Origin: Candidatus Bathyarchaeia archaeon
GTDB taxonomy: Archaea; Thermoproteota; Bathyarchaeia; Bathyarchaeales; Bathycorpusculaceae
Length of the DNA: 64,000 bases
Direction of reading: 5' to 3'
NCBI GenBank assembly: GCA_049516875.1
Contig: JBEKSS010000005.1
Location: 1 to 64,000 of the forward strand
Made by a program: the position numbers and the translations under genes
Shown: piece by piece, positions 29,919 to 53,497 of the stretch
How positions within the stretch are numbered: position 1 is the stretch's first letter
How the letters are laid out: every line of letters starts with the position of its first letter
Notes under the pieces: generated by a model
Databases searched by the model: none
What the model was told of the DNA's origin: nothing
What the model saw: the letters and a program-made list of their open reading frames with translations, nothing else

Positions 29919-31184
29919 ATGGAGATAACAGATCAAAGGTTGGAAGACTGGCTTTCCCAAGTGTGTGAGAGCCCCAAGACAAGAGGAATGTACCTCTTCG
30001 TTTGGGGAAACTTCGAAAAGTTCTGCAGGAGAAGAGGAAAGGACCCTCTGACGCTTGTTGACGACTTCAGGGCTGTCAAGTACCAGGGTGAGCTGCAGAA
30101 GGAAAGGTTCCTTGAAGAGTGGCAGGATGTTCTCCGGGCCTTCAACACCTGGCTGAAGCCAAAGTTTGCTCCCTTAACCGTGAAAAACCACCTCACCGGC
30201 GTGAGGAGCTTCCTGAACTACTGGAAAATTCCTCTTGGCGTGGACCTTCCTAAGCATGCCTGTGTCATCTGGCACAACAGGGACATCAAAAAGGAAGAGG
30301 TAAAACAGATCCTGACTTTCGCAACCGCAAGAGACAGGGTGATCTGGCTGGTCATGGCCGAATCGGGAATGAGGTCTGATAATGCAGTGAACCTGAGATA
30401 CTCGCAGATCAAAGAAGACTTTGAAGCCAAAAGAGTTCCGATGAAGATTCTATTGCCGAGTAACACCTTGAAAGACCATGTTGGAGACCGCTTCACCTTC
30501 ATAGGCGAAGACGGCTTCAGAGAGCTGAGCGGCTATCTTCAGAGAAGGCTGCCACTCCAGGACAACAATTTCGTCTTCGTCACTGAGAAGCAGGGAAGAG
30601 TGAAGGGCGAACAATTCACTCCTGGAAGCCTTTCCATGAAGTTCAACAATATCGTGCAGAAACTCGGGATCGACAAGTCTGTCACAGGTAAATTAAACAA
30701 AGACAAAGGAGAACGTCCCAAGCCTAAACAGATAAGGCTGCATGGGCTGCGAAAGTATTTCAGGAACAACATGAAGGCTGATTCTGCTTTCATAAACTTC
30801 TGGATGGGCCACAGCCTAGGCGTTGACCAACACTACATCAGCCGGGATCCCGAAGGCCATCGGAAAGAGTATGCGAACGGATACCAGCACCTCAGGATTT
30901 TCGAGGCCTCAGAAGAAGTCTCAAAGCATTATGTGACGCTGGGCCAATTCGAGTCCATGCTGAAAATGAAGGATGCAGAAGTCGCCGCCTTAAGAGCCGA
31001 ACTCGAGCGGTACATGAAGGGAGCTGAAGGCTTCGAGAAGAGGCTTCAAGAGGTCAAAACAGAAATGCGCCGAGAGTTTGAGATGATGGTAGGCCCCAAA
31101 ACGTTGAACGAGTTGAAAGAACTGTTGGAAAGCAGAAAGAGACTGCTGAAAAAGCTGCCACCGAAATACGTCGCCAAAGAGTAA
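29919..31184 (+). CDS. Tyrosine recombinase/integrase
   Basis: SGMRSD (Arg), LHGLRKYF (HxxR), FWMGH and catalytic Tyr (VDQHY); C-terminal coiled coil. Confidence 0.95.
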   Translation: MEITDQRLEDWLSQVCESPKTRGMYLFVWGNFEKFCRRRGKDPLTLVDDFRAVKYQGELQKERFLEEWQDVLRAFNTWLKPKFAPLTVKNHLTGVRSFLNYWKIPLGVDLPKHACVIWHNRDIKKEEVKQILTFATARDRVIWLVMAESGMRSDNAVNLRYSQIKEDFEAKRVPMKILLPSNTLKDHVGDRFTFIGEDGFRELSGYLQRRLPLQDNNFVFVTEKQGRVKGEQFTPGSLSMKFNNIVQKLGIDKSVTGKLNKDKGERPKPKQIRLHGLRKYFRNNMKADSAFINFWMGHSLGVDQHYISRDPEGHRKEYANGYQHLRIFEASEEVSKHYVTLGQFESMLKMKDAEVAALRAELERYMKGAEGFEKRLQEVKTEMRREFEMMVGPKTLNELKELLESRKRLLKKLPPKYVAKE

Positions 31185-31195
31185 ACCTCAAAAAT

Positions 31196-31210
31196 CCCCT
31201 TTTTTCTGTT
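31196..31210 (+). terminator. Oligo-T terminator of integrase
   Basis: CCCCTTTTTTCTGTT 11 nt after the stop; same pyrimidine motif as the cassette repeats but without GGGGTG. Confidence 0.55.
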
Positions 31211-36125: not shown

Positions 36126-37028
36126 GTGACCCAGGACGTCGTTGAACCGAAAGCATCCATCGTTGAATCTTCACCGGAGCTCAGGGTGAACCCTGAGTAT
36201 GAGAGGTTGCTGCCAAGGCTGAGTGTGCGTGAGTTTGAGGCCCTGAAACTTTCAATCAAGACTGAAGGCCAGCACTTCCCGATAGCCGTAAACCCTCAAC
36301 ATGAAATCTTGGACGGACACACCAGGGCGAGGGCCTGCAAAGAGTTGGGCGTGGCACCGGAGTATGAAGTGAAATCCTTCTCAAACAAACTGCTGGAAAA
36401 GAAGTTCGTCGTGGAAGCGAACCTGAGACGGCGGCAGCTGAATCGATTTGAGAAGGCAGAGCTCGGCAAGGTCCTTCTCGAAGTTGAATCTAAACTTGCC
36501 AGACAAAGACAGTTGTCCAAGCTCAAACGGGGGACTGAAACCACGTCTGGACCAAATGGTCCGAACGGGGAAAAGGGTCGAGCTCGTGACCTTGTTGGCA
36601 AGCAAATCGGCCTGAGCTCCACAACCTTTCACAGAGCCCTAACAATCATGGACAAGGGCTCGGAAGACTTGAAAGCCGAAGTGAGAGAGGGAAAGACAAG
36701 CATAGCCCACGCCTACCAGACGGTTCGGCCAGAGGCGACCCACCAGAAGCCACGTGAAATCAGCCGGGTTGAAACTTCACCTGCACTGAAGAACCAGACC
36801 GACGTCCAGACGCATCACGAAAAGAATGCCTCTCCCAAAAATGAAAATGACCAGCGTGTACCTCGCACAATTCTCTTTTGGCCCTACGAACTGGCTATCA
36901 TCCAGCGGTTCACACCAGGGCCGCCGCCGACTACGTTTGAAGATCTCGTCCATAAGGCTGCCTACGACAAGTACGTCAAAGGACAACCAGTTCGAAGCCG
37001 GCTGAGCTCAGGGGAAGTGATTGGGTGA
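36126..37028 (+). CDS. ParB/Srx N-terminal domain protein
   Basis: LKLSIKTEGQHFPI.V, ILDGHTR, EANLRRRQL, HTH-like ARDLVGKQIGLSSTTF. Confidence 0.85.
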   Translation: MTQDVVEPKASIVESSPELRVNPEYERLLPRLSVREFEALKLSIKTEGQHFPIAVNPQHEILDGHTRARACKELGVAPEYEVKSFSNKLLEKKFVVEANLRRRQLNRFEKAELGKVLLEVESKLARQRQLSKLKRGTETTSGPNGPNGEKGRARDLVGKQIGLSSTTFHRALTIMDKGSEDLKAEVREGKTSIAHAYQTVRPEATHQKPREISRVETSPALKNQTDVQTHHEKNASPKNENDQRVPRTILFWPYELAIIQRFTPGPPPTTFEDLVHKAAYDKYVKGQPVRSRLSSGEVIG

Positions 37029-41869: not shown

Positions 41870-42426
41870 CGAAACGTTTTTAAATTTGTTGCGTTCAACA
41901 TGTTTTAGTACGTTGTGCTTAAAGCAACAACGTACAGCAACATCATAAGCAACTAATCAACCGACACGTAAAATCTACGGCTGTTCTATGGCTGTTCACA
42001 ATACCTAAGACGGATTAAGCCTTTGATCTTGAAACGCTTCTGTTGGGTGGAACAGAAACACAAATACCGCCACGATTAGAGGCTTGAAAGGTCTTTAAGA
42101 CGTGTGACGAAACACACACACGGATTTAGTACGGCTGTTCTGGAATATCTCGATTTTACTGAAGTTTACCATGTTGGGAAATTAGGCTTATGCCATCGCA
42201 GAAGGTTAAGGTGTTCTGTGGATGGGCGGAATAAGTTAAAACCGTTGAAACCTATTGTTTTAGGCTGTTCCACGTCACAAGACGTAAAACGTGACGCAAA
42301 CAAAGAATTAGGCTGAAAAACACCTTAAAAGATTAGACCTTTATTATCCTTATCCTAGAGGTAATAAAGACAATTCAGACAGACGCTTCTCTAAACCGTT
42401 GCCCACAACAAACACAGGTGTTTTCT
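41870..42426 (+). other. Structured non-coding segment A (hairpins, GGCTGTTC repeats, several TATA-like sites)
   Basis: Stems 41908-15/41928-35, 42017-28/42074-85, 42038-44/42051-57, 42193/42225, 42273-78/42291-96, 42339-46/42362-69; GGCTGTTC four times. Confidence 0.6.
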
Positions 42427-42738
42427 ATGCTGAATGTCGGAAAATGTCGAAGTTGCGGTTTCGTAGTTCACCATCTATCTACTCCAGACTTCAAGGCTCT
42501 TATGAACGGACACCTCAGCAGATCTCATCCCAGCGAAGCCTTTGATTTTCCCCTGCACGTCACTATGACAGACTTCAAGGCTCTTTTTATCATCGTAAGA
42601 GTCACGAAGGAAGAGGAGATAGAGGGCACACTACGAGTTCTGCAAAACCGTGGTTATTGGGTGGCAATTCGTAACCATCCACAACTACAAAACATCCTTG
42701 TTTCTGGCTTGGGCATCGGGGAGTTAAAGCCTTTCTGA
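42427..42738 (+). CDS. C2H2-type zinc-finger protein
   Basis: CRSCGF...MNGHLSRSH; AGGTG RBS before ATG 42427. Confidence 0.65.
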   Translation: MLNVGKCRSCGFVVHHLSTPDFKALMNGHLSRSHPSEAFDFPLHVTMTDFKALFIIVRVTKEEEIEGTLRVLQNRGYWVAIRNHPQLQNILVSGLGIGELKPF

Positions 42739-42790: not shown

Positions 42791-43273
42791 ATGAATGTTT
42801 TGCCAAGAAGAAATGCTCAAACAGCCGAAACCCAAGTCGTGACTGAACCTTCTAGACTAGATTTGCTTGAGGCTTTCGCAGAGTTGGTGGCTGAGAGATG
42901 GGGCTATTTTATGGGCAGACGCCTCACTCAACAAGAGATGACTGAGAAGTGCAAGAACGAAATCAAAGCTGCCAGAGAGAAATCCAAGGCTCTCAACGGG
43001 AGCATAGAGAAACTCATCAAGGGCGAGGATCCAGAAGTCCGAGCCATGATTGAGACTCAGCGTGCCGACCTGAAGAACGCCAAAGAAATCGCGGGCGAAG
43101 CTAGAAAGCCGTTCCAACAAAAGATTGCCCCTCTAGCTCAAGCTCAGAAATACTGTGACAACGTGGCCATTCCCGACTCTTTGAAAGAGTTGGGGCACCC
43201 TGTCACGCCACGGTTCAGCCTCAGCGAGTGGGTGGGCAAGGCTGTCGAGCAGAACAAGAGAAAGAAGAAGTAA
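42791..43273 (+). CDS. Helical hypothetical protein directly upstream of the large ncRNA
   Basis: 160-aa ORF, coiled-coil core, basic tail KRKKK. Confidence 0.75.
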   Translation: MNVLPRRNAQTAETQVVTEPSRLDLLEAFAELVAERWGYFMGRRLTQQEMTEKCKNEIKAAREKSKALNGSIEKLIKGEDPEVRAMIETQRADLKNAKEIAGEARKPFQQKIAPLAQAQKYCDNVAIPDSLKELGHPVTPRFSLSEWVGKAVEQNKRKKK

Positions 43274-43320
43274 GTCAGCTTCTTCCACATCAACCTCAAC
43301 CCCCTTTTTTTCCTGCTAAA

Positions 43321-43850
43321 ACTGTTCGGCTCGTCCGACAGTGGCATGGAAAGGCAGTCTTGCGAGAGCTAGACGCACGAGAGGACAGAATAAAGGCTTG
43401 AGAAGACAAAGATAGAAGCGTTTGTGCGTTAAACCTCAAAGGACTGTGGAGAAGGAAGACCGCTGGCTGTAAGGGAACAGCCGAAACCCCAATGAAGTCT
43501 TTTTCACAGCTAACCGCTCAGGACCTCTTCGTCCATTATCCAGAAGGTTTAATGGACATGGAGAGGGCACTCTCCGAGCCGATCGGCGGTGTAAGCTGAA
43601 GGAGAGTTGGTAGCTCGTATAACACAAAGAAGAAGCCCCATTACTTCTAAGCCTGATCCATGTGGGAGACACCCCCAATCATACTACCCACGTGCTACTC
43701 ACATTGAACAAGCTACCTTCGGGTACGCATGTTTCAAGTCGAGTTGGGCGGAAGCGAGCAGCGTAGAAGGGCGACTTTCTACGCGAGGAAATGGAAGGCG
43801 CAGCAATGCGCTGGGCGAGGCAGCACAGACGCTTACCAACGCTGGGGTGT
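43321..43850 (+). ncRNA. Large structured non-coding RNA B (unassigned)
   Basis: At least 10 helices, three GNRA loops, one cUUCGg loop, 12-bp closing helix 43416-27/43823-34; no credible ORF. Confidence 0.75.
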
Positions 43851-43857
43851 TAGTGTC

Positions 43858-44082
43858 ATGAGCATTTTCTGCGAGAATGAAGGAAAGTTGGTCACTATCG
43901 TTATCCCAAACAGAATAGCCATCGGCAGCCAAGTGAAAGTCATCAAGTGCCACAAGAAACTGCGCGATCGTGATTGTAGGGGCTGCCTTGCCAAGCATGC
44001 GTGTGCTGTATTCTTAGACGAGCCGAGGTTTTCACTCAAAACTTTCTGTGGAGGTCGAAGACGTCGAAAACGGAAACCATAG
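43858..44082 (+). CDS. Cys-rich small cassette protein
   Basis: ATG after GGGGTG; CRGCLAKHAC; PRFSLKTF. Confidence 0.6.
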   Translation: MSIFCENEGKLVTIVIPNRIAIGSQVKVIKCHKKLRDRDCRGCLAKHACAVFLDEPRFSLKTFCGGRRRRKRKP

Positions 44083-44113
44083 TCCTCTTCCTTTTTCTGT
44101 TCGGGGTGCATGT

Positions 44114-44374
44114 ATGGCCAGAGTTTTGCCAGCAAATGCTATAGAGGTGTCACACAACAAGGAAGCATTCTGCTTAATCTTCAGGTTCCAAGCTGCTGAC
44201 GCACATCAAGAAGCCGTCTACATCTCCATATCGCCTGCAGGAGCAAAAACCACGTCTGCCCTAATCGGCAGGGAAATCCAAGAGTACGAAAGAGAAACAG
44301 GTCTGACAGTAGCACCTTGGGAAATGCCTCAGAGCACACTGACCCAGATGAGTAAAAACCACCTCTCAAGCTGA
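44114..44374 (+). CDS. DUF3467-like small protein
   Basis: ANAIEVSH.KEAF.L.F...ISPAGAK...L...I..YE..G pattern; ATG 5 nt after the repeat RBS. Confidence 0.65.
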   Translation: MARVLPANAIEVSHNKEAFCLIFRFQAADAHQEAVYISISPAGAKTTSALIGREIQEYERETGLTVAPWEMPQSTLTQMSKNHLSS

Positions 44375-44436
44375 TCGCTGAAACGTTTAAATACCTTCTT
44401 CCTTTTTTTGTACGAGGTACGAAGTGGGGTGGAACG

Positions 44437-44643
44437 ATGCCCAAAAAGAAAAGCAAGAGTAAAGAAACCGCACGGCTCAACCTGTACCTCGACCCGGACC
44501 TGGCGAAAAAGCTGAACGACTACTGCCTCGCATACATGGAAAAACACAAGAAAATAATTGAGTCCATAAGACAGATGGTTGGCAGGATGGCGCTGGCAGA
44601 ATGGCTTCAAAACCACGGCGACGACTTCACCGTCGAGCTCTAG
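44437..44643 (+). CDS. Ribbon-helix-helix-like DNA-binding protein
   Basis: RLNLYLDPDLAKKLNDYC...MALAEWL. Confidence 0.65.
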   Translation: MPKKKSKSKETARLNLYLDPDLAKKLNDYCLAYMEKHKKIIESIRQMVGRMALAEWLQNHGDDFTVEL

Positions 44644-44674
44644 CCTCCACTTTTTTCTCTTCGGGGTGATTCAA

Positions 44675-44806
44675 ATGGTAAGAAAAGATCCGGAGCATTG
44701 TAGCCACATACGGATAAACAGGGTCCTTGACACCTGGCTCTGCAACGAGTGCGGAGCTGAATTTGTTCCGAAGAATCCTAAGCACACGACAAAGTGGCAA
44801 AATTAA
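44675..44806 (+). CDS. 43-aa zinc-ribbon microprotein
   Basis: CSH...WLCNECGAEF; bounded by two repeat copies. Confidence 0.65.
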   Translation: MVRKDPEHCSHIRINRVLDTWLCNECGAEFVPKNPKHTTKWQN

Positions 44807-44827
44807 CCCCCTTTTTCTGCGGTGCAA

Positions 44828-44960
44828 ACACCTACTTCATCGACAGTCGAAAGGCTGCAACAGGCGGCGTGGCTCTAATCTCGCTGCGACAAGGGCACTT
44901 TTTGCGCGGAAAAGGTAGGGGGTTCTGTGCAGAAAACCCTAGTCGTGACCATTGGGGTGT
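44828..44960 (+). ncRNA. Structured non-coding segment C (multibranch, GAAA tetraloop)
   Basis: CAGTC-GAAA-GGCTG, GCGGCG/CGCTGC, TAGGG..TTCTG/CAGAA..CCCTA, ACACCT/GGGTGT closing helix. Confidence 0.5.
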
Positions 44961-44969
44961 GTATGAGCA

Positions 44970-45635
44970 ATGAGCAAGATACCGTTGCTTCTGCAGCGCA
45001 TTCAAAGATTTGAGGAGAGTCCCAGGGCTCCGCCGAAGACAAGCAAGAAACTGCTAGCCCTTCTCAATCGATTGAACACTCGCGAGTGGCTGCCCATCGT
45101 TGAAGGACAGCTGATGGAAGCCATTGTTCACTTGAAATGTGAAGTGAAGTTCATTGAACACCTGCCCCGCTGCCGGTTCTGTCAGCTGGAGCTCCAGCTA
45201 GATGTCGAGCGTTACAACGGAGTCCATTCAACCTGGTATCTCAGCCTGGAAAACAGTGAATATCTCGAAGAGGAATACCCTGACTGTCCCAAAGAGGAAG
45301 ATTACACGATAGATGATTATTGGAGTCAAGTGGAACGTTACAGGCAGACCGGCACAACAGAATCGAAAGACGTCAACACCCTGAAATTCATCTTGGACAG
45401 GGCAAAATGGGCTTACCAGATAGCTGGAAAACAGATAAAACTGGCCCGGCAGCTGCTCAGACTCGTTCGAAACTGGAACTTCAGCGAGAAGACCGAGGTA
45501 GAATTCAACAGGCTCTTCGAAGAACTTGAAATGTACGAGATAGCTAATCCTTCCCTTTTTTCTGCCTTGGGGTGTAAACACGAGCGACAAACTTCAGAAA
45601 CTGATACACACCATCAACACAAAACGGTATGCTAG
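44970..45635 (+). CDS. Hypothetical cassette protein
   Basis: 221 aa, CRFC; 3' end reads through a repeat copy. Confidence 0.65.
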   Translation: MSKIPLLLQRIQRFEESPRAPPKTSKKLLALLNRLNTREWLPIVEGQLMEAIVHLKCEVKFIEHLPRCRFCQLELQLDVERYNGVHSTWYLSLENSEYLEEEYPDCPKEEDYTIDDYWSQVERYRQTGTTESKDVNTLKFILDRAKWAYQIAGKQIKLARQLLRLVRNWNFSEKTEVEFNRLFEELEMYEIANPSLFSALGCKHERQTSETDTHHQHKTVC

Positions 45636-45681
45636 AGGAAACCCGAAGGATATACTATATCGGATTCTCGATGAAATCGAC

Positions 45682-46566
45682 ATGAGAGCCCACTTCGGTT
45701 ATAGAAGAAGCTGGGAGATACTCGTCGAACTGTTGGCCTATCACCTTGGCTTGCTGTCAAACCCCTGGCTCTACTCGAAACCAGCGATGGACTTACGGTA
45801 CGTTGAAGAGAAGACGAATCCGATGATAAGGCTCGGATTCCGCAGAAACCAGGGTCTGTGGGCTCCTAGAATGAGACTGCAGTGGAGACATCCAGCCTCC
45901 CAGCTTTCACGAGAAGCGAGAGAGGTTCTAGCCCGCGTTGAAGAGACGGACCTTCTGGAACAGTACGTCGTGGCAGCCAGGGCTAAGCCGTGGGACCATG
46001 TAGGCGACATATTCGTTGAACAGGAACTGGCAGGACGGAAGAACGCTCTTGGACAGAACCTGACACCCAAGCAGATCGTTGACTTCATGTTGAAAATGAC
46101 CCTGGATTTTGATAAGCCCACAAAGGAGCCAAGAACGTTGCTTGAACCATGTGTCGGAACAGGGCGATTTCTGATAGAAGCAAGTCTGATGAACCCTGAA
46201 AAACCTCTAATCCTATTCGGAATCGAGATAGACATCACACTGTACCGGGCATGCCTAGTCAACATGGCTCTCTTCAGCAGCAACCATCCCTACAGCATCA
46301 TCCGGGCTGACACGTTGATGCTTGATCTCGAGGCTTCAATGCCTGGCAGCCCGGTCTGGAACCAGGGTAACAGGTGGGATCCAGCGGACATGTCACCATA
46401 CTACATCAAGATACCTCTACCATTCAAGTTCTCCCTAGCGGAAATGGCAAAGGTTATGAAAGAGCAGTCAACCGACGTGCAGCAGCCCACCATCGTAATA
46501 CCGACGCCGCCGATGGCGTTCTCACTTGCAACACTGGCCAGAGCGAAGAAGAAACAACAGACATAA
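45682..46566 (+). CDS. N-6 DNA methylase-like (HsdM-like) protein lacking the NPPY/F motif
   Basis: LGQNLTP (motif X), LLEPCVGTGRFL (motif I), FGIEID, ADTL; frame open upstream to an ACG at 45580 behind the repeat RBS. Confidence 0.8.
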   Translation: MRAHFGYRRSWEILVELLAYHLGLLSNPWLYSKPAMDLRYVEEKTNPMIRLGFRRNQGLWAPRMRLQWRHPASQLSREAREVLARVEETDLLEQYVVAARAKPWDHVGDIFVEQELAGRKNALGQNLTPKQIVDFMLKMTLDFDKPTKEPRTLLEPCVGTGRFLIEASLMNPEKPLILFGIEIDITLYRACLVNMALFSSNHPYSIIRADTLMLDLEASMPGSPVWNQGNRWDPADMSPYYIKIPLPFKFSLAEMAKVMKEQSTDVQQPTIVIPTPPMAFSLATLARAKKKQQT

Positions 46567-46598
46567 TCCCTCTTTTTTTTCTGTCCGGGGTGCAAAAG

Positions 46599-46997
46599 TT
46601 GAATCCTTTGGAATTGTATCAGCTTAGGCGTTACTGCCGCAAATACGGATTGGATTTTCAGGAGGTCGACAGCACGTTAACATACGCAGAATGCAAAAAG
46701 CATCTTAAGTCCCTGGTGCACATGCTCTTCCAATCACTGGACACGTTTGAACTGGCTCGCATGGCATCGCTGCAGGTAGAGTACATAGAAAACCACGCTC
46801 TCACCTACTATGCATCATGTCGGGTGGGTGGAGAGACAAAATCGGAAGAAGTCGGGGATCCCGACACGAGTCCACAGCGGTTTTCGCTGAAGACCATGAC
46901 AAGTGTTGGATTCTCTCTTTCATCATACGCAAAGCGACAGCCTGCATTTCCGGACCCTAGCATGAACAAGACAAGGCAAACTCAACGAAAAACCTAG
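46599..46997 (+). CDS. Hypothetical cassette protein
   Basis: TTG 6 nt after the repeat RBS; two FSL motifs at the C-terminus. Confidence 0.65.
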   Translation: MNPLELYQLRRYCRKYGLDFQEVDSTLTYAECKKHLKSLVHMLFQSLDTFELARMASLQVEYIENHALTYYASCRVGGETKSEEVGDPDTSPQRFSLKTMTSVGFSLSSYAKRQPAFPDPSMNKTRQTQRKT

Positions 46998-47094
46998 GCT
47001 AAACCGCCCAGAAATAGTCTTCTTCCTCATACTATATTACAGAAATCTCAAACATTCGGTGAGAGCCCTCTTTTTTTCTCCCCGGGGTGCAAGA

Positions 47095-47364
47095 GTGAGA
47101 CTCCGACGAAGCGACGTGCAAATCGTGAGAGCGATTCTCGAGGCAGCCAAGAAACTGGTGCGGGAGCCCTACTCGCTGAGCGAGCTGGCCGCAGCGGCAA
47201 GCGTGACGAGGAAAACCGCGAGAAGATGGCTCAGCCTGCTCAGGACAGTGGCGGAACTGTTGGTTCTGCCCCTGGAAACCAGGGTTGCTTATTTTGAGGG
47301 TCCAGGAAGAGGCAGAAAGCGAAGACGGAAAAGACTGACCACCGTTTCTCTCGCGCTCAGGTAG
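47095..47364 (+). CDS. HTH DNA-binding protein
   Basis: YSLSELAAAASVTRKTARRWL; GTG after the repeat RBS. Confidence 0.7.
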   Translation: MRLRRSDVQIVRAILEAAKKLVREPYSLSELAAAASVTRKTARRWLSLLRTVAELLVLPLETRVAYFEGPGRGRKRRRKRLTTVSLALR

Positions 47365-47497
47365 GCTGCCATCCCCTTTTTTTCTATGTTCAACTGGGTT
47401 CACTTGGGGTCCAAGGTTTTTGTATTTTCTCCGCACGCTCGTTACGGTTGCCCTATGGGGTGAAAAAACCCTTAAACCTTAAAGGAGAAAGAGAAAA

Positions 47498-48046
47498 ATG
47501 AAAAGACTCAGTAGGCTTAGTACACGCGGCAAAACTCTGATCGTCATCTTGTGCGCTGCTACGCTGGTTGGGGTTGCCGTCGCTATCCCCATCCTCGAGC
47601 GAGTGCTAACAGTGACAGTTCAAACCGGGCCCAGGCTCTTCGAAATCTGGAACGCGGACAGGACAGCGCAGATAACGAGTGTGGATATTGGCGGAATCTT
47701 CCCGGACCAGGTCAACGCCGTAAACTTGACCACGATCTACTTGCACAACACCGACACTTCGGGACAGCGCGACCTGAACATCACGGTGCATCCGTCGGCA
47801 ACGTTCGACTCGACCATCTTCAACCTGCTCGTAAACGGCACAAACCTGGCGGATGGCGTCACAAGAGTGCTTTGGAACAACGGGCCGGGCACATGGGTCC
47901 TGGCCTGGGGCCACGACCAGACGTATCCGATAGAGTGGGTCAAGGTGGAAATCTACCTGTGGCTCAAGCCCGAAGCAAGCCCGCCAGCCGGCGCCTACGA
48001 CTTTCAGCTGCTCTGGGACGCGCCGCTAGGCTCTTGGGGACCGTAG
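47498..48046 (+). CDS. Secreted/membrane-anchored beta-rich protein
   Basis: Basic N-terminus + hydrophobic helix, N-x-T sequons; own BRE/TATA (AAAAAACCCTTAAA). Confidence 0.7.
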   Translation: MKRLSRLSTRGKTLIVILCAATLVGVAVAIPILERVLTVTVQTGPRLFEIWNADRTAQITSVDIGGIFPDQVNAVNLTTIYLHNTDTSGQRDLNITVHPSATFDSTIFNLLVNGTNLADGVTRVLWNNGPGTWVLAWGHDQTYPIEWVKVEIYLWLKPEASPPAGAYDFQLLWDAPLGSWGP

Positions 48047-48096
48047 TGAACGCTAAAGCGAACACTTCATAACCCTCTTTTTTCTGTTCGGGGTGA

Positions 48097-48396
48097 ATGA
48101 AAGCGTCTGAATCTCTTAAAACAAAAGTCAAATCCTACAACCCGTACACGAGAGCACGGAACAATCAACAGATTTACAAGACGTGTCCAGACTGTGGAAG
48201 AGAGCTTATGATGTATCGTGAATCGGGACATCAGCACTGGAGACCTACCGGCAGAGCATGTCCAGAACTTGTTGAATGGAACTATGTTGTGTACATACGA
48301 TGTGGAATCTGCGGTGGATTAGTTAAAACACGGTTGAAACCTATGTCGAAGTCTATGCCAAAGGACCTAGCGCGGCAATGGAAATTAATACCCTGA
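48097..48396 (+). CDS. Zinc-finger protein
   Basis: CPDCG and CGICG; follows a repeat. Confidence 0.7.
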   Translation: MKASESLKTKVKSYNPYTRARNNQQIYKTCPDCGRELMMYRESGHQHWRPTGRACPELVEWNYVVYIRCGICGGLVKTRLKPMSKSMPKDLARQWKLIP

Positions 48397-48435
48397 GTCT
48401 CCACTCCTCCCTTTTTCTGTTCTGGGGTGATTGAA

Positions 48436-48582
48436 TTGAGTTATTTGCGAAGAATCTTAGGAGTAGTCCTGAATGGCGCCGCGGAAGTCAGTCAGATCGC
48501 CAGCGACGCCGCCAAGGAAACAGCAGAAGTAGTCAAGGACGTCGCCAAGACCGTTACCGAGAAGAAACCAGCAACGGCATGA
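48436..48582 (+). CDS. 48-aa amphipathic microprotein
   Basis: MSYLRRILGVVLNGAAEVSQIASDAAKETAEVVKDVAKTVTEKKPATA between two repeats; below the ORF-track cutoff. Confidence 0.6.
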   Translation: MSYLRRILGVVLNGAAEVSQIASDAAKETAEVVKDVAKTVTEKKPATA

Positions 48583-48673
48583 AGCCTTTATTTACGAGGG
48601 GCTTCTGCCTCTTTTTTTTCTGTTCGGGGTGAAGGCCCGTTTAAGGTTGGAATGAAGGGCAAGCAGTGGTTAT

Positions 48674-52018: not shown

Positions 52019-53497
52019 CTATGGTGTGTATTTGAAAGGATGTTTTGATCGGTCCTTGTTTTCCATAAGCTCGTCCATGCCAGGTCTGCCTTCCATGGCC
52101 TTGCGCACGGCGTGACGTACAGCCTTGTAGTTGTTTATGTACACACGTTGTCGGTCAACGGCTGCGGGATGGACGAAAACGTTTGCTATGATTATGAGTT
52201 CTTCAACAGCTTCCTTCGGAATCGTGCCATCTGCGACGCTGTCTATGACAGCTTTGGCCACCGCCGTTTGGGCTGGCCCATAAACCATGCTTGCCTCCCG
52301 CATGCCCCTGATCGTGACTGTTGGAACGATTAGGGTTACCGGCTTGACCGCCAAGTTCGGCTCCAGAATGGCCAGTAACGGCTCATGCCCCGGAGTTGGT
52401 GTTGCCTTGGCCTTTGTGAAGGCTTCCGCCACTGGGCCGTCTTTCGTTCCGATAAGGAGGTCAACGTGAGCCACCTCTGCATCCTGCCCAGCTAGTGCTT
52501 CCCCAACGCGCAGTTTGAAGTTCTTGACTGTTTCTGGAGTAATGTCCACGGTCACGAAACGCTCTTCCAGAGGTTTCTCAGTTAGCTCAAAGCTTATTGG
52601 TTTTGGTTGTACTTTCCCTATTTTTTCCAGGTCGAGCCTCAGTTCCTCTTTTGACTCGTAGGTTAATTCTCCACCGACGCTTAATGGTTTCCTCACTGGG
52701 CCGACCTTGATTTTCATCATCTTCAGCGCCTCTTTTGTGCCTACGGCGCCGCTTCCCGCTATTATTCTAGCTATTTTCTGGACTTTGTATTGAAGTTCGC
52801 GGGCCTGTTGCAGCTCACCCTTCTTCACATGGTTATAGATTTGAATCCAAATGTCGGGTATGACGTTGGCACTAGCAAGGATTGCCCCTGAGCATCCGGC
52901 TGAGAGTCCTGCCACGACAACCTCGTCGTGCCCGCAAAGAACGTTTATCTTGTCCCTGACTTTTTCCAGAACGGCCAAGATGAAGCTTAGCTGTCCGCTG
53001 CTGTCCTTCAATGCGACGATGTTTGGGATTTGCGCTAGATCTTCCACCATCTGCCAGGGAAGAGGCAAGCCTGTGCACTGCGGAATGTTGTAGAGAATTA
53101 TGGGCAGGTCGACTTCATTCGCAATCGTGTAGTAGTGCTCGTATATTCCCCGATCTGCTGGTTTTAGGTAGAACGGTGTGACGATGAGGGCAGCGGTGGC
53201 GCCAACGTCCTTTGCGTACTTCGTCATTTCCACCGCTTGGTCTGTGCCGCTTGCTCCTGTCCCAGCAATCACTGGAACCCGGCCGTTCACTTCGTCAACC
53301 ACGATCTTGATTACGCCCTTTTTCTCCTCGTTCGTGAGGTTTACAAACTCGCCGGTCGTACCGCACGGGACGACTCCGTGAACGCCCAGTTCGATGCAAT
53401 GGTTAACTAAACTCCGCAGCCTTTCTTCGTCAATTGTTTTCCCGTCGTCGGTAAAGGGCGTCACCAGCGCGGGCATAATGCCTTCCGGCTTGTACAT
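52019..53497 (-). CDS. DapA-family class I aldolase fused to formaldehyde-activating enzyme (Fae) domain
   Basis: GTTGEF, LYNIP, ALKDSSG (Schiff-base Lys); C-terminal VGEAL...AHVDLLIG...GH.PLLA.LEPNL..KP.T...GPAQ.AVAKAV...NNY.A. Confidence 0.9.
   Translation of the reverse strand: MYKPEGIMPALVTPFTDDGKTIDEERLRSLVNHCIELGVHGVVPCGTTGEFVNLTNEEKKGVIKIVVDEVNGRVPVIAGTGASGTDQAVEMTKYAKDVGATAALIVTPFYLKPADRGIYEHYYTIANEVDLPIILYNIPQCTGLPLPWQMVEDLAQIPNIVALKDSSGQLSFILAVLEKVRDKINVLCGHDEVVVAGLSAGCSGAILASANVIPDIWIQIYNHVKKGELQQARELQYKVQKIARIIAGSGAVGTKEALKMMKIKVGPVRKPLSVGGELTYESKEELRLDLEKIGKVQPKPISFELTEKPLEERFVTVDITPETVKNFKLRVGEALAGQDAEVAHVDLLIGTKDGPVAEAFTKAKATPTPGHEPLLAILEPNLAVKPVTLIVPTVTIRGMREASMVYGPAQTAVAKAVIDSVADGTIPKEAVEELIIIANVFVHPAAVDRQRVYINNYKAVRHAVRKAMEGRPGMDELMENKDRSKHPFKYTP

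Follow-up and report, generated by a model that had tools for sequence, protein, structure and literature searches.

The + strand at positions 43320-43850 in a stretch of DNA from Candidatus Bathyarchaeia archaeon (contig JBEKSS010000005.1, positions 1 to 64,000; the whole stretch of 64,000 nucleotides is called the window here) carries a strongly conserved structured RNA, free of open reading frames (ORFs), that resides on mobile elements of Bathyarchaeia. We consider it likely that this window RNA belongs, as a diverged member, to a family of RNase P RNA derivatives that are borne by integrative or plasmid-like elements and have a circularly permuted catalytic core. The derivation of the family from RNase P and its permutation are held with good confidence, and those of the window copy with slightly less. 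That the RNA still works as an endonuclease is possible rather than probable, the function being deduced from sequence comparison.

The relatives were collected through the protein of 160 amino acids (aa) encoded immediately upstream of the RNA. At E ≤ 0.001, 220 of 328 candidates are homologues of this protein, and the few homologue records that are named belong to metagenome-assembled genomes of Bathyarchaeia. An alignment of 38 homologues (A1) was used to fetch the loci. Species-representative genomes gave 18 pattern matches, of which 4 were confirmed (4 loci); metagenomes gave 284 matches, of which 194 were confirmed, and the best 80 of the 194 loci were retained. The DNA 3' of the protein gene is kept in nearly all loci with 67-94% identity to the window, and one locus (L016) is identical to it across 587 bases. 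A hidden Markov model (HMM) made from 18 loci was applied at E ≤ 1e-5 to the 80 loci with >100 bases 3' of the gene, and the RNA was found directly 3' of the gene homologue in 80/80. As 18 of these match by construction, 62 are real tests. The preliminary description of this DNA had suggested a possible partnership of the RNA with the protein encoded just upstream, and the association of the RNA with this gene was thereby borne out. The 80 loci comprise 52 full-length copies of the window type, 9 copies cut by a contig end, 12 members of a second subfamily, and 7 partial matches (L054, L062, L072, L080, L083, L088, and L089).

The same description had claimed a large ornate RNA on the + strand and had named a conserved ORF, the folding energy, and covariation among homologues as its checks. 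No ORF in the region 43274-43857 is common to the relatives. In the window, the region does overlap with ORFs of 80-117 aa, and an antisense ORF recurs at 44 loci because the DNA is conserved. A coding reading was rejected because of the lack of a shared ORF, because the variation in the RNA region has no 3-base (codon) periodicity, and because the indels do not keep to multiples of three (among 44 sequences, the length differs by 0, 1, and 2 modulo 3 in 13, 13, and 18, respectively). The longest open stretch goes down to 37 aa in the relatives. A replication origin with iterons was also rejected, as no iterons or repeats were found in the region. The single-sequence fold of the + strand (-181.9 kcal/mol) was better than those of shuffles, with a z score of -2.71, but only modestly so, and the - strand gave -2.62; the single-sequence fold is thus undecisive, and the evidence is comparative.

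For this comparison, the 52 full-length copies were reduced to 46 at <97% identity, and L074 and L093, which contain insertions, were left out. The resulting alignment (A3; MAFFT E-INS-i) consists of the window and 43 loci (44 sequences, mutually <97% identical). Helices were first obtained by a search for covariation stacks without an energy model and then counted on A3. The structure has 109 pairs in 20 helices. Paired cells amount to 93.6% of 4710 in A3 and to 77.9 ± 0.4% in shuffles, and the value falls to 40-47% when the partners are slid by 1-3 columns. Changes on both sides were observed in 79/109 pairs (shuffles, 51.8) and in 795 cells (shuffles, 245), and the covariation score was 0.470, compared with 0.183 in shuffles. 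None of the five measures was attained by any shuffle (0/500). G.U cells outnumber A.C cells (386 versus 60), indicating that the RNA is on the + strand. The claim of a structured RNA on this strand therefore stands. So does its lack of an Rfam assignment: cmscan gave no match at gathering scores for the window, and a scan of 43000-44200 at E ≤ 10 added only four chance-level matches, none to RNase P. Group I and group II introns, OLE, ROOL, GOLLD, and SRP RNA gave no gathering-score match in the window and none at E ≤ 10 in 43000-44200.

The likeness to RNase P lies in the topology of the core and in its junctions. The RNA was compared with the host's RNase P as aligned by cmscan (196.6 bits; intact elsewhere in the genome) and with a consensus derived from 30 cellular RNase P RNAs of Bathyarchaeia of the same family. 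The cellular order is P1-P2-P3-AGGAAA-P4-P5 in the 5' half and P5'-AAAG-P15... P2'-AACAGAA-P4'(..UU)-AC-P1' in the 3' half. The order in the core of the window RNA is P2' - single strand - P4' - A - P1' - cap - P1 - P2 - hairpin - GAGGA - P4 - P5. As the two orders are identical when read as a circle, the helices were assigned as P1 (capped), P2, P3, the P4 pseudoknot, and P5. In the P4 pseudoknot, 43635-42 pairs with 43790-94 and 43814-16, that is, the strand after J2/4 pairs with the strand after J3/4. P1, P2, and P3 are arranged around P4, P5 follows directly after it, and all of them covary. AGGAAA is located 5' of P4 in 43/44 sequences (GAGGAAA in 35/44), ACAGAA 5' of P4' in 26/44, UUAC at the end of P4' in 43/44, and AAAGG 3' of P5' in 39/44. 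The cellular consensus reads GAGGAAA-CUCCGCC, AACAgAA-GGCGGGUUAC, and GUGG-AAAG-G, and cellular RNase P of the same family has GUGG-AAAG-GGC at P5'/J5/15. The linear order is not that of RNase P: the strand resembling conserved region V (CR-V; 43629-43) lies upstream of the strand resembling conserved region I (CR-I; 43785-816).

A sister subfamily (subfamily 2; 12 loci: L015, L042, L048, L049, L053, L056, L067, L068, L071, L073, L082, and L083) has the neighboring protein of the 160-aa type and the 5' domain of the RNA in common with the window type, whereas its core differs. Its 5' domains match the HMM of the family at E 1e-9 to 1e-36, and 9/12 loci match the 5' domain of the window directly (E 5e-11 to 1e-3). 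In the sister core, ACAGAA-GGCGGGUUAC comes first, and a hairpin-GAGGAAA-CUCCGCCC follows ~80-160 nucleotides (nt) later. These CR-V and CR-I segments are almost letter for letter the consensus of cellular Bathyarchaeia RNase P in swapped order. P4 of the sister loci has 8/8 pairs and the bulged U at the usual place in 12/12 loci, with five covarying versions, a count flattered by the script, which took the best-pairing AGGAA site in each locus. The alignment also shows P1 (UUCAUCC/GGGUGAA) and P2 (CCAGCU/GGCUGG), with a plain hairpin as the P1 cap in L042, L056, and L073. An HMM of the CR-IV/V segment scored 14.4-14.9 bits (E 3e-4 to 5e-4) at 5 loci, and that of the CR-I segment scored 16.6-20.1 bits (E 9e-6 to 1e-4) at 4 loci; the best of 240 shuffles reached 6.7 and 8.0, respectively. 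The full RNase P HMM matched with its positions 267-298 before 26-61 in 6/12 loci and gave a single match at E < 10 on 240 shuffles. When ten sister loci were scanned with 4227 Rfam families, RNaseP_arch alone gave E ≤ 1. The best match, 17.3 bits (E 0.55) over CR-IV/V of L015, does not reach the gathering threshold of RF00373 (84 bits); a covariance model cannot follow a permutation. An HMM built on the window-type core scores 14 bits (E 1.4e-5) in L068 and L082 over J2/4-P4'-P1-P2, compared with 2.3 bits for the best shuffle. A sister subfamily with CR-I and CR-V suggests that the window RNA is a diverged member of a permuted family derived from RNase P. RNase P had been excluded by eye in the preliminary description in favor of a class unrelated to known RNAs, and neither judgment is supported, given the topology and junction motifs of the core and the CR-I and CR-V of the sister subfamily. 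Neither the eye nor a covariance model finds the likeness because the order is permuted.

From 5' to 3', the permuted RNA would have the 5' domain in the place of the specificity domain, then the core's 3' half, which comprises P5', hairpins at the position of P15, P2', J2/4, and P4', followed by the capped P1, the core's 5' half (P2, P3, J3/4, P4, and P5), and finally the helix joining both ends. Its features are as follows.

43322-43341, +: CUGUUCGG/CCGACAG, the first hairpin in the 5' domain, which has a single bulged base; compensatory changes.
43343-43396, +: remaining 5' domain, conserved in all clades, comprising a small hairpin with the loop AUGGAAAG at 43346-53, then variable sequence, and then the conserved ACAGAAUAAAGG at 43385-96.
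43406-43410, +: deletion junction at the P12 position, where every relative except L016 has a hairpin domain ("X") of 110-345 nt.
43416-43427, +: 5' strand of H1, the 12-bp helix joining the core ends (P7 position), partner 43823-43834; 95.9% paired, 3 pairs changed on both sides.
43434-43441, +: CCUC (43434-37), the P5-like 3' strand with partner GAGG at 43817-20, then AAAG as in J5/15; 100% paired, 4/4 pairs covary.
43444-43509, +: H2 (43444-55/43498-509) enclosing H3 (43465-70/43477-82); H2 98.6% paired, 10/12 pairs covary.
Within 43524-43607, +: H5 (43524-38/43550-66); 12/15 pairs covary.
Within 43524-43607, +: H6 (43569-75/43601-07) with the conserved loop GAGCCGAUYGGCGG.GUAAGC; 99.2% paired, 6/6 pairs covary.
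43613-43634, +: P2-like 3' strand GCUCG (partner CGAGC, 43755-59), then a J2/4-like single strand of 17 bases; 99.5% paired, 3/5 pairs covary.
43635-43643, +: P4-like 3' strand GCCCCAUU plus A, pseudoknot with 43790-94 and 43814-16; 8 pairs 95-98% paired, 5 changed on both sides.
43644-43754, +: P1-like helix CUUCU/GGAAG (43644-48/43750-54), closed by a cap; 100% paired, 4/5 pairs covary.
43761-43794, +: P3-like hairpin (43761-70/43775-84, GCGA loop), J3/4-like GAGGA (43785-89), and AAUGG, the start of the P4 5' strand; P3 10/10 pairs covary.
43795-43812, +: clade-specific hairpin with a GCAA-type loop inside the P4 5' strand; 10/44 sequences of A3.
43813-43834, +: GGC (43814-16), the end of the P4 5' strand, with the P5 5' strand GAGG (43817-20) and the H1 3' strand (43823-34); covariation in A3.

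In the permuted order, the 5' domain is located at the position expected for the RNase P specificity domain. Its first hairpin (4+3 bp, 100% canonical, 14 further pair types in the stack finder) has the compensatory versions CCGACUAG/CUAGCGG and UCGUGCAG/CUGCCGAC in relatives. ACAGAAUAAAGG is followed by a variable hairpin domain and an A-rich strand, occupying the place of CR-II/CR-III/P12. Domain X of the relatives is closed by helices of the GUAGGUUCU/AGAACCUAC type, and this closing helix (7 bp, 98% canonical) covaries. The window copy lost the whole P12-like domain between two short GACAA repeats; its remaining helices and invariant bases are all intact despite the deletion. Long-range pairing of the 5' domain with the core was also sought, and the only stacks obtained were rich in G/U and unconvincing.

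Within the 3' core half, a long-range helix (43460-64/43585-89) is 100% paired and has one pair that is CG in 31, UA in 11, and UG in 2 sequences, and a candidate GGG/CCC loop contact (43473-75/43487-89) is invariant in the relatives. The P1 cap contains H9 (43659-66/43687-94), in which 8/8 pairs covary, with an invariant loop CACCCCCAAU at 43670-79, and a variable UUCG arm (43697-744).

Ten of the helices drawn in the preliminary description recur in the A3 structure. They are the closing helix (43416-27/43823-34) and its CCTC/GAGG extension, the stem given as 43444-54/43499-509 (43444-55/43498-509 in A3), GGCTGT/ACAGCC, CCTCTTC+GTCCATTA with their partners, ACTCTCC/GGAGAGT, GCTCG/CGAGC, CATGTGGG/CCCACGTG, the base of the UUCG arm (43697-700/43741-44, 4/4 pairs covary), and the 10-bp GCGA hairpin (43761-84). 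A proposed pseudoknot between 43394-405 and 43644-54 was discarded because CUUCU at 43644-48 pairs with GGAAG at 43750-54; its AAGCC is not conserved either. The GAGA hairpin at 43364 is not conserved among the relatives, and the GCAA hairpin at 43803 is an insertion found in 10/44 sequences.

Here, we outline how such an RNA may act. The RNA would be cotranscribed with its flanking genes and is probably made from the operon transcript, because it lies between genes of the same strand and a terminator/ribosome-binding signal is split around it. It would fold into an RNase P-like, metal-dependent active site around P4, as suggested by the conserved P1-P5 core and junctions. It would work as an endoribonuclease ribonucleoprotein, probably with the 160-aa coiled-coil protein and a ~100-aa zinc-finger protein encoded upstream, with RNase P proteins of the host, or with both. 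The substrate would be other than ordinary pre-tRNA, such as a transcript of the element or the host, since the specificity domain is replaced by the 5' domain. The complex would thus be an RNase P-type ribonucleoprotein with a changed substrate. The new RNA ends fall between the core and the 5' domain, and this placement between the catalytic and recognition domains could allow the tail or the 5' domain to choose the substrate. Engineered RNase P with a guide sequence chooses its substrate in a similar way. In the fullest version, Bathyarchaeia elements captured and rotated an RNase P RNA, swapped its specificity domain, and added two proteins, which would give a working ribozyme with a new target and the first natural permuted RNase P; we put this forward tentatively, as somewhat less probable than its opposite.

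Several observations weigh against the derivation from RNase P or against a working ribozyme. P4 of the window subfamily lacks the bulged U of RNase P, and the clade of the window (10/44) has a hairpin in the P4 strand and GAAGAA in place of ACAGAA (GAAGAA being the form in the window and one other sequence). The hairpin insertion and the GAAGAA change could abolish catalysis. The window copy and the identical L016 are without the P12-like domain, unlike every other relative. The segment HMMs of RNase P perform no better on the window subfamily than on shuffles, and Rfam yields no RNase P match for the window even at E ≤ 10. HMM comparison of the 5' domain with the RNase P specificity domain gave no significant match, and a search of the domain yielded no P10/11-like pairing. 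The tie to subfamily 2 consists of the 5' domain, the common neighbor, and a 14-bit match in two closely related loci, and the P4 count of that subfamily is flattered, as described above. Finally, most of the 84 loci stem from a few related metagenome projects and are hence not independent.

The loss of the bulged U in the window subfamily and the clade with a hairpin in P4 make an RNase P look-alike that does not cut a serious rival, although an unlikely one. Such an RNA would be a decoy or scaffold for host RNase P proteins (Pop5/Rpp30, Rpp21/Rpp29, and L7Ae) or tRNA-like RNAs, with which the element could slow or redirect tRNA maturation of the host. It accounts for the same structural evidence, and the two changes in P4 would reflect an active site that was relaxed while the architecture was kept. 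However, the junction nucleotides of P4 are nearly invariant (AGGAAA and UUAC, each in 43/44), which a protein scaffold would need less, and subfamily 2 retains a complete P4. A new class of large noncoding RNA with no tie to RNase P, in which the P4-like pseudoknot and the A-rich junctions are convergent, would agree with the absence of an Rfam match for the window and with the insignificant segment HMM scores of its subfamily. It is quite improbable because a chance agreement of five helices in circular order and four junction motifs would be needed, and because the sister subfamily with RNase P-identical CR-I and CR-V has the same 5' domain and neighboring gene.

We regard as very improbable a giant cis-acting leader in which the invariant loop CACCCCC (43670-76) hides the ribosome-binding GGGGUG (43844-49) upon a signal. 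The RNA does lie between genes of the same strand and has no promoter that is evident, and GGGGUG is conserved just 3' of the end helix though the downstream genes differ. This conservation is explained by GGGGTG being the ordinary intergenic signal of the element, with 7 further copies; moreover, CACCCCC and GGGGUG are both invariant, so that covariation does not speak for their pairing, and ~500-850 nt with a pseudoknotted core far exceeds the needs of a switch. Almost no weight is given to the readings of the region as coding sequence, as a replication origin, or as a decaying piece of the host RNase P gene acquired by the element. The overlapping ORFs of 80-117 aa and the antisense ORF of 44 loci would speak for coding, but they are outweighed by the aperiodic variation, the lengths, and the short open stretches described above, and an origin is opposed by the absence of iterons or repeats. 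A function at the DNA level or decay does not fit covariation that keeps G.U pairs on one strand, and the host has its intact RNase P elsewhere.

A permuted derivative of RNase P, which remains the preferred reading, differs in several respects from known systems. It has the P1-P5 core, the P4 pseudoknot, AGGAAA, ACAGAA, UUAC, and AAAG in common with archaeal type A RNase P RNA (RF00373, clan CL00002), and, in subfamily 2, also the CR-I and CR-V sequences including the bulged U. In contrast to archaeal RNase P, the order in the window family is circularly permuted, P1 ends in a cap rather than in the free ends of the molecule, a different 5' domain stands in for the specificity domain, and the window RNA has three hairpin domains at the place of P15-17. 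It is a mobile-element RNA beside two unrelated small proteins, P4 of its subfamily is changed and has no bulge, and the RNA receives no Rfam score.

The nearest precedent for the proposed offshoot is RNase MRP, whose RNA, according to the accessible part of the source, arose by duplication of RNase P RNA, retained the P4 core, and gained new substrates and some proteins of its own (PMC3001073). RNase MRP is eukaryotic, chromosomal, and collinear with RNase P, whereas the window RNA is archaeal, borne by a mobile element, and permuted. Known large RNA folds encoded in a rotated order of segments are described, in the accessible parts of the reports, for group II introns in bacteria (PMC8637638), tRNA genes (PMC3978253), and the 23S rRNA of Pyrococcus (PMC7758197). 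None of the cases in those parts is RNase P; for the permuted tRNA and rRNA, a precursor is cut and circularized, whereas the permutation of the window RNA is at the gene level, with P1 capped by sequence. OLE, ROOL, and GOLLD, as far as the accessible text of the source describes them, are similar in size and also have many conserved helices and an association with mobile elements or phages (10.1101/2024.12.08.627333). The window RNA has no match to their Rfam models, and its core is RNase P-like. In the literature, with subscription journals and supplementary files outside the scope, we found no natural permuted or mobile-element-borne RNase P RNA and no report of this Bathyarchaeia RNA.

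If the proposal is correct, the RNase P fold tolerates natural circular permutation, and mobile elements recruit and retool ribozymes. RNase P is one of the few ribozymes common to all cellular life, and its RNA is thought to be a fixed chromosomal housekeeping gene. Annotation by covariance models would be blind to such relatives, and the RNA would be a prokaryotic counterpart of RNase MRP on a mobile element. A natural design of a minimal core plus a new recognition domain would bear on substrate choice by RNase P-type enzymes and on the origins of MRP-like offshoots.

The RNA is embedded in a conserved module with the following further features.

42418-42738, +: gene of the ~100-aa protein, first in the module; the ORF family is present here in 68/84 sources.
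42791-43273, +: gene of the 160-aa protein, all-helical coiled coil with a K-rich tail; the RNA follows in 80/80 loci.
43305-43311, +: T7 run 3' of the 160-aa gene, the usual element signal, where conservation of the RNA region begins.
43844-43849, +: GGGGUG, 8 nt 5' of the ATG at 43858; the same GGGGTG precedes 7 other genes.

The ~100-aa protein has the invariant residues C7, C10, H29, S33, H34, and W78 (alignment A4), and the pattern C..C..H..SH indicates that it is probably a zinc finger. Its AlphaFold2 (AF2) model has a predicted local distance difference test score (pLDDT) of 82, and the best fold match is a weak one to the AFV1p06 zinc finger of an archaeal virus (E 0.25). The AF2 model of the 160-aa protein (pLDDT 80) consists of long helices, and fold searches with it gave only generic coiled coils (best E 0.05). 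Neither protein has a Pfam or PHROG match, and neither model resembles an RNase P protein in the fold searches. By their co-occurrence with the RNA, both are candidate cofactors.

Approximately 585 bases with no convincing ORF separate the stop codon of the 160-aa gene from the ATG of the 74-aa gene at 43858 (+), and a DNA search found the RNA region as a single copy in its own genome. The location in an integrative element, as initially described, is confirmed by the surroundings: a tyrosine-type integrase (29919-31184) marks an integrated element that also encodes a ParB-like nuclease (36126-37028) and an N6 DNA methylase (45682-46566) and is otherwise rich in small genes with no family assignment. 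Ordinary host genes resume near 51 kb. Most small genes of the element are preceded by an intergenic signal, a T5-T8 run followed by CTGTTCGGGGTG, which has 7 copies within 44085-48631 and is also present at 43291-43322 and 31193-31210. The RNA appears to have been inserted into one such signal, a T-run plus CTGTTCGG being located at the 5' end of the RNA and GGGGTG at the 3' end. As GGGGTG is also found upstream of 7 other element genes, the simplest reading of the copy at 43844-43849 is a ribosome-binding site for the gene that follows (43858-44082).

The distribution of the element among Bathyarchaeia is sporadic. DNA searches gave only short chance matches to the region in 200 sampled genomes of the family and did not find it in 400 sampled genomes of the class. 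In IMG/VR, no relative of the 160-aa protein was found, with 0 real homologues among 42 exact pattern matches. tRNA genes lie near the module in 2/60 loci, on related contigs, and so are not enriched. In these two related loci, a tRNA-Asp gene is located ~1.3-1.5 kb 3' of the RNA (L066:4972-5046 and L076:3667-3741) and may be the integration site of their elements.

The RNA also varies in size among the loci. Optional hairpins are located at A3 columns 326-362 in L043, L044, L057, L058, and L059 and at columns 101-163 in L019, L025, L032, L034, L055, L058, and L081. Their occurrence at fixed points of the core in some clades indicates that the RNA grows and shrinks by whole hairpins. The insertions of L093 and L074 within the RNA core are roughly 730 and 450 bases long, respectively. 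The long P12-like domains contain a T5-T8 run (27/46 sequences), and in L026, L046, L065, L047, L017, and others, the 3' strand of the closing helix is present twice, the first copy being followed by the T5-T8 run. The run could be an internal terminator or attenuator, or it could split the RNA into two transcripts.

Two further observations concern genes outside the module. One genome of the family has, besides its normal gene, a second, weak full-length match to RNaseP_arch (G017:C1:259746-260032) at 83.5 bits, just under the cut-off of 84, which may be another RNase P paralogue. In the host part of the window, the gene at 52019-53497 (-) encodes a domain of the dihydrodipicolinate synthase family fused to a formaldehyde-activating enzyme (Fae) domain.

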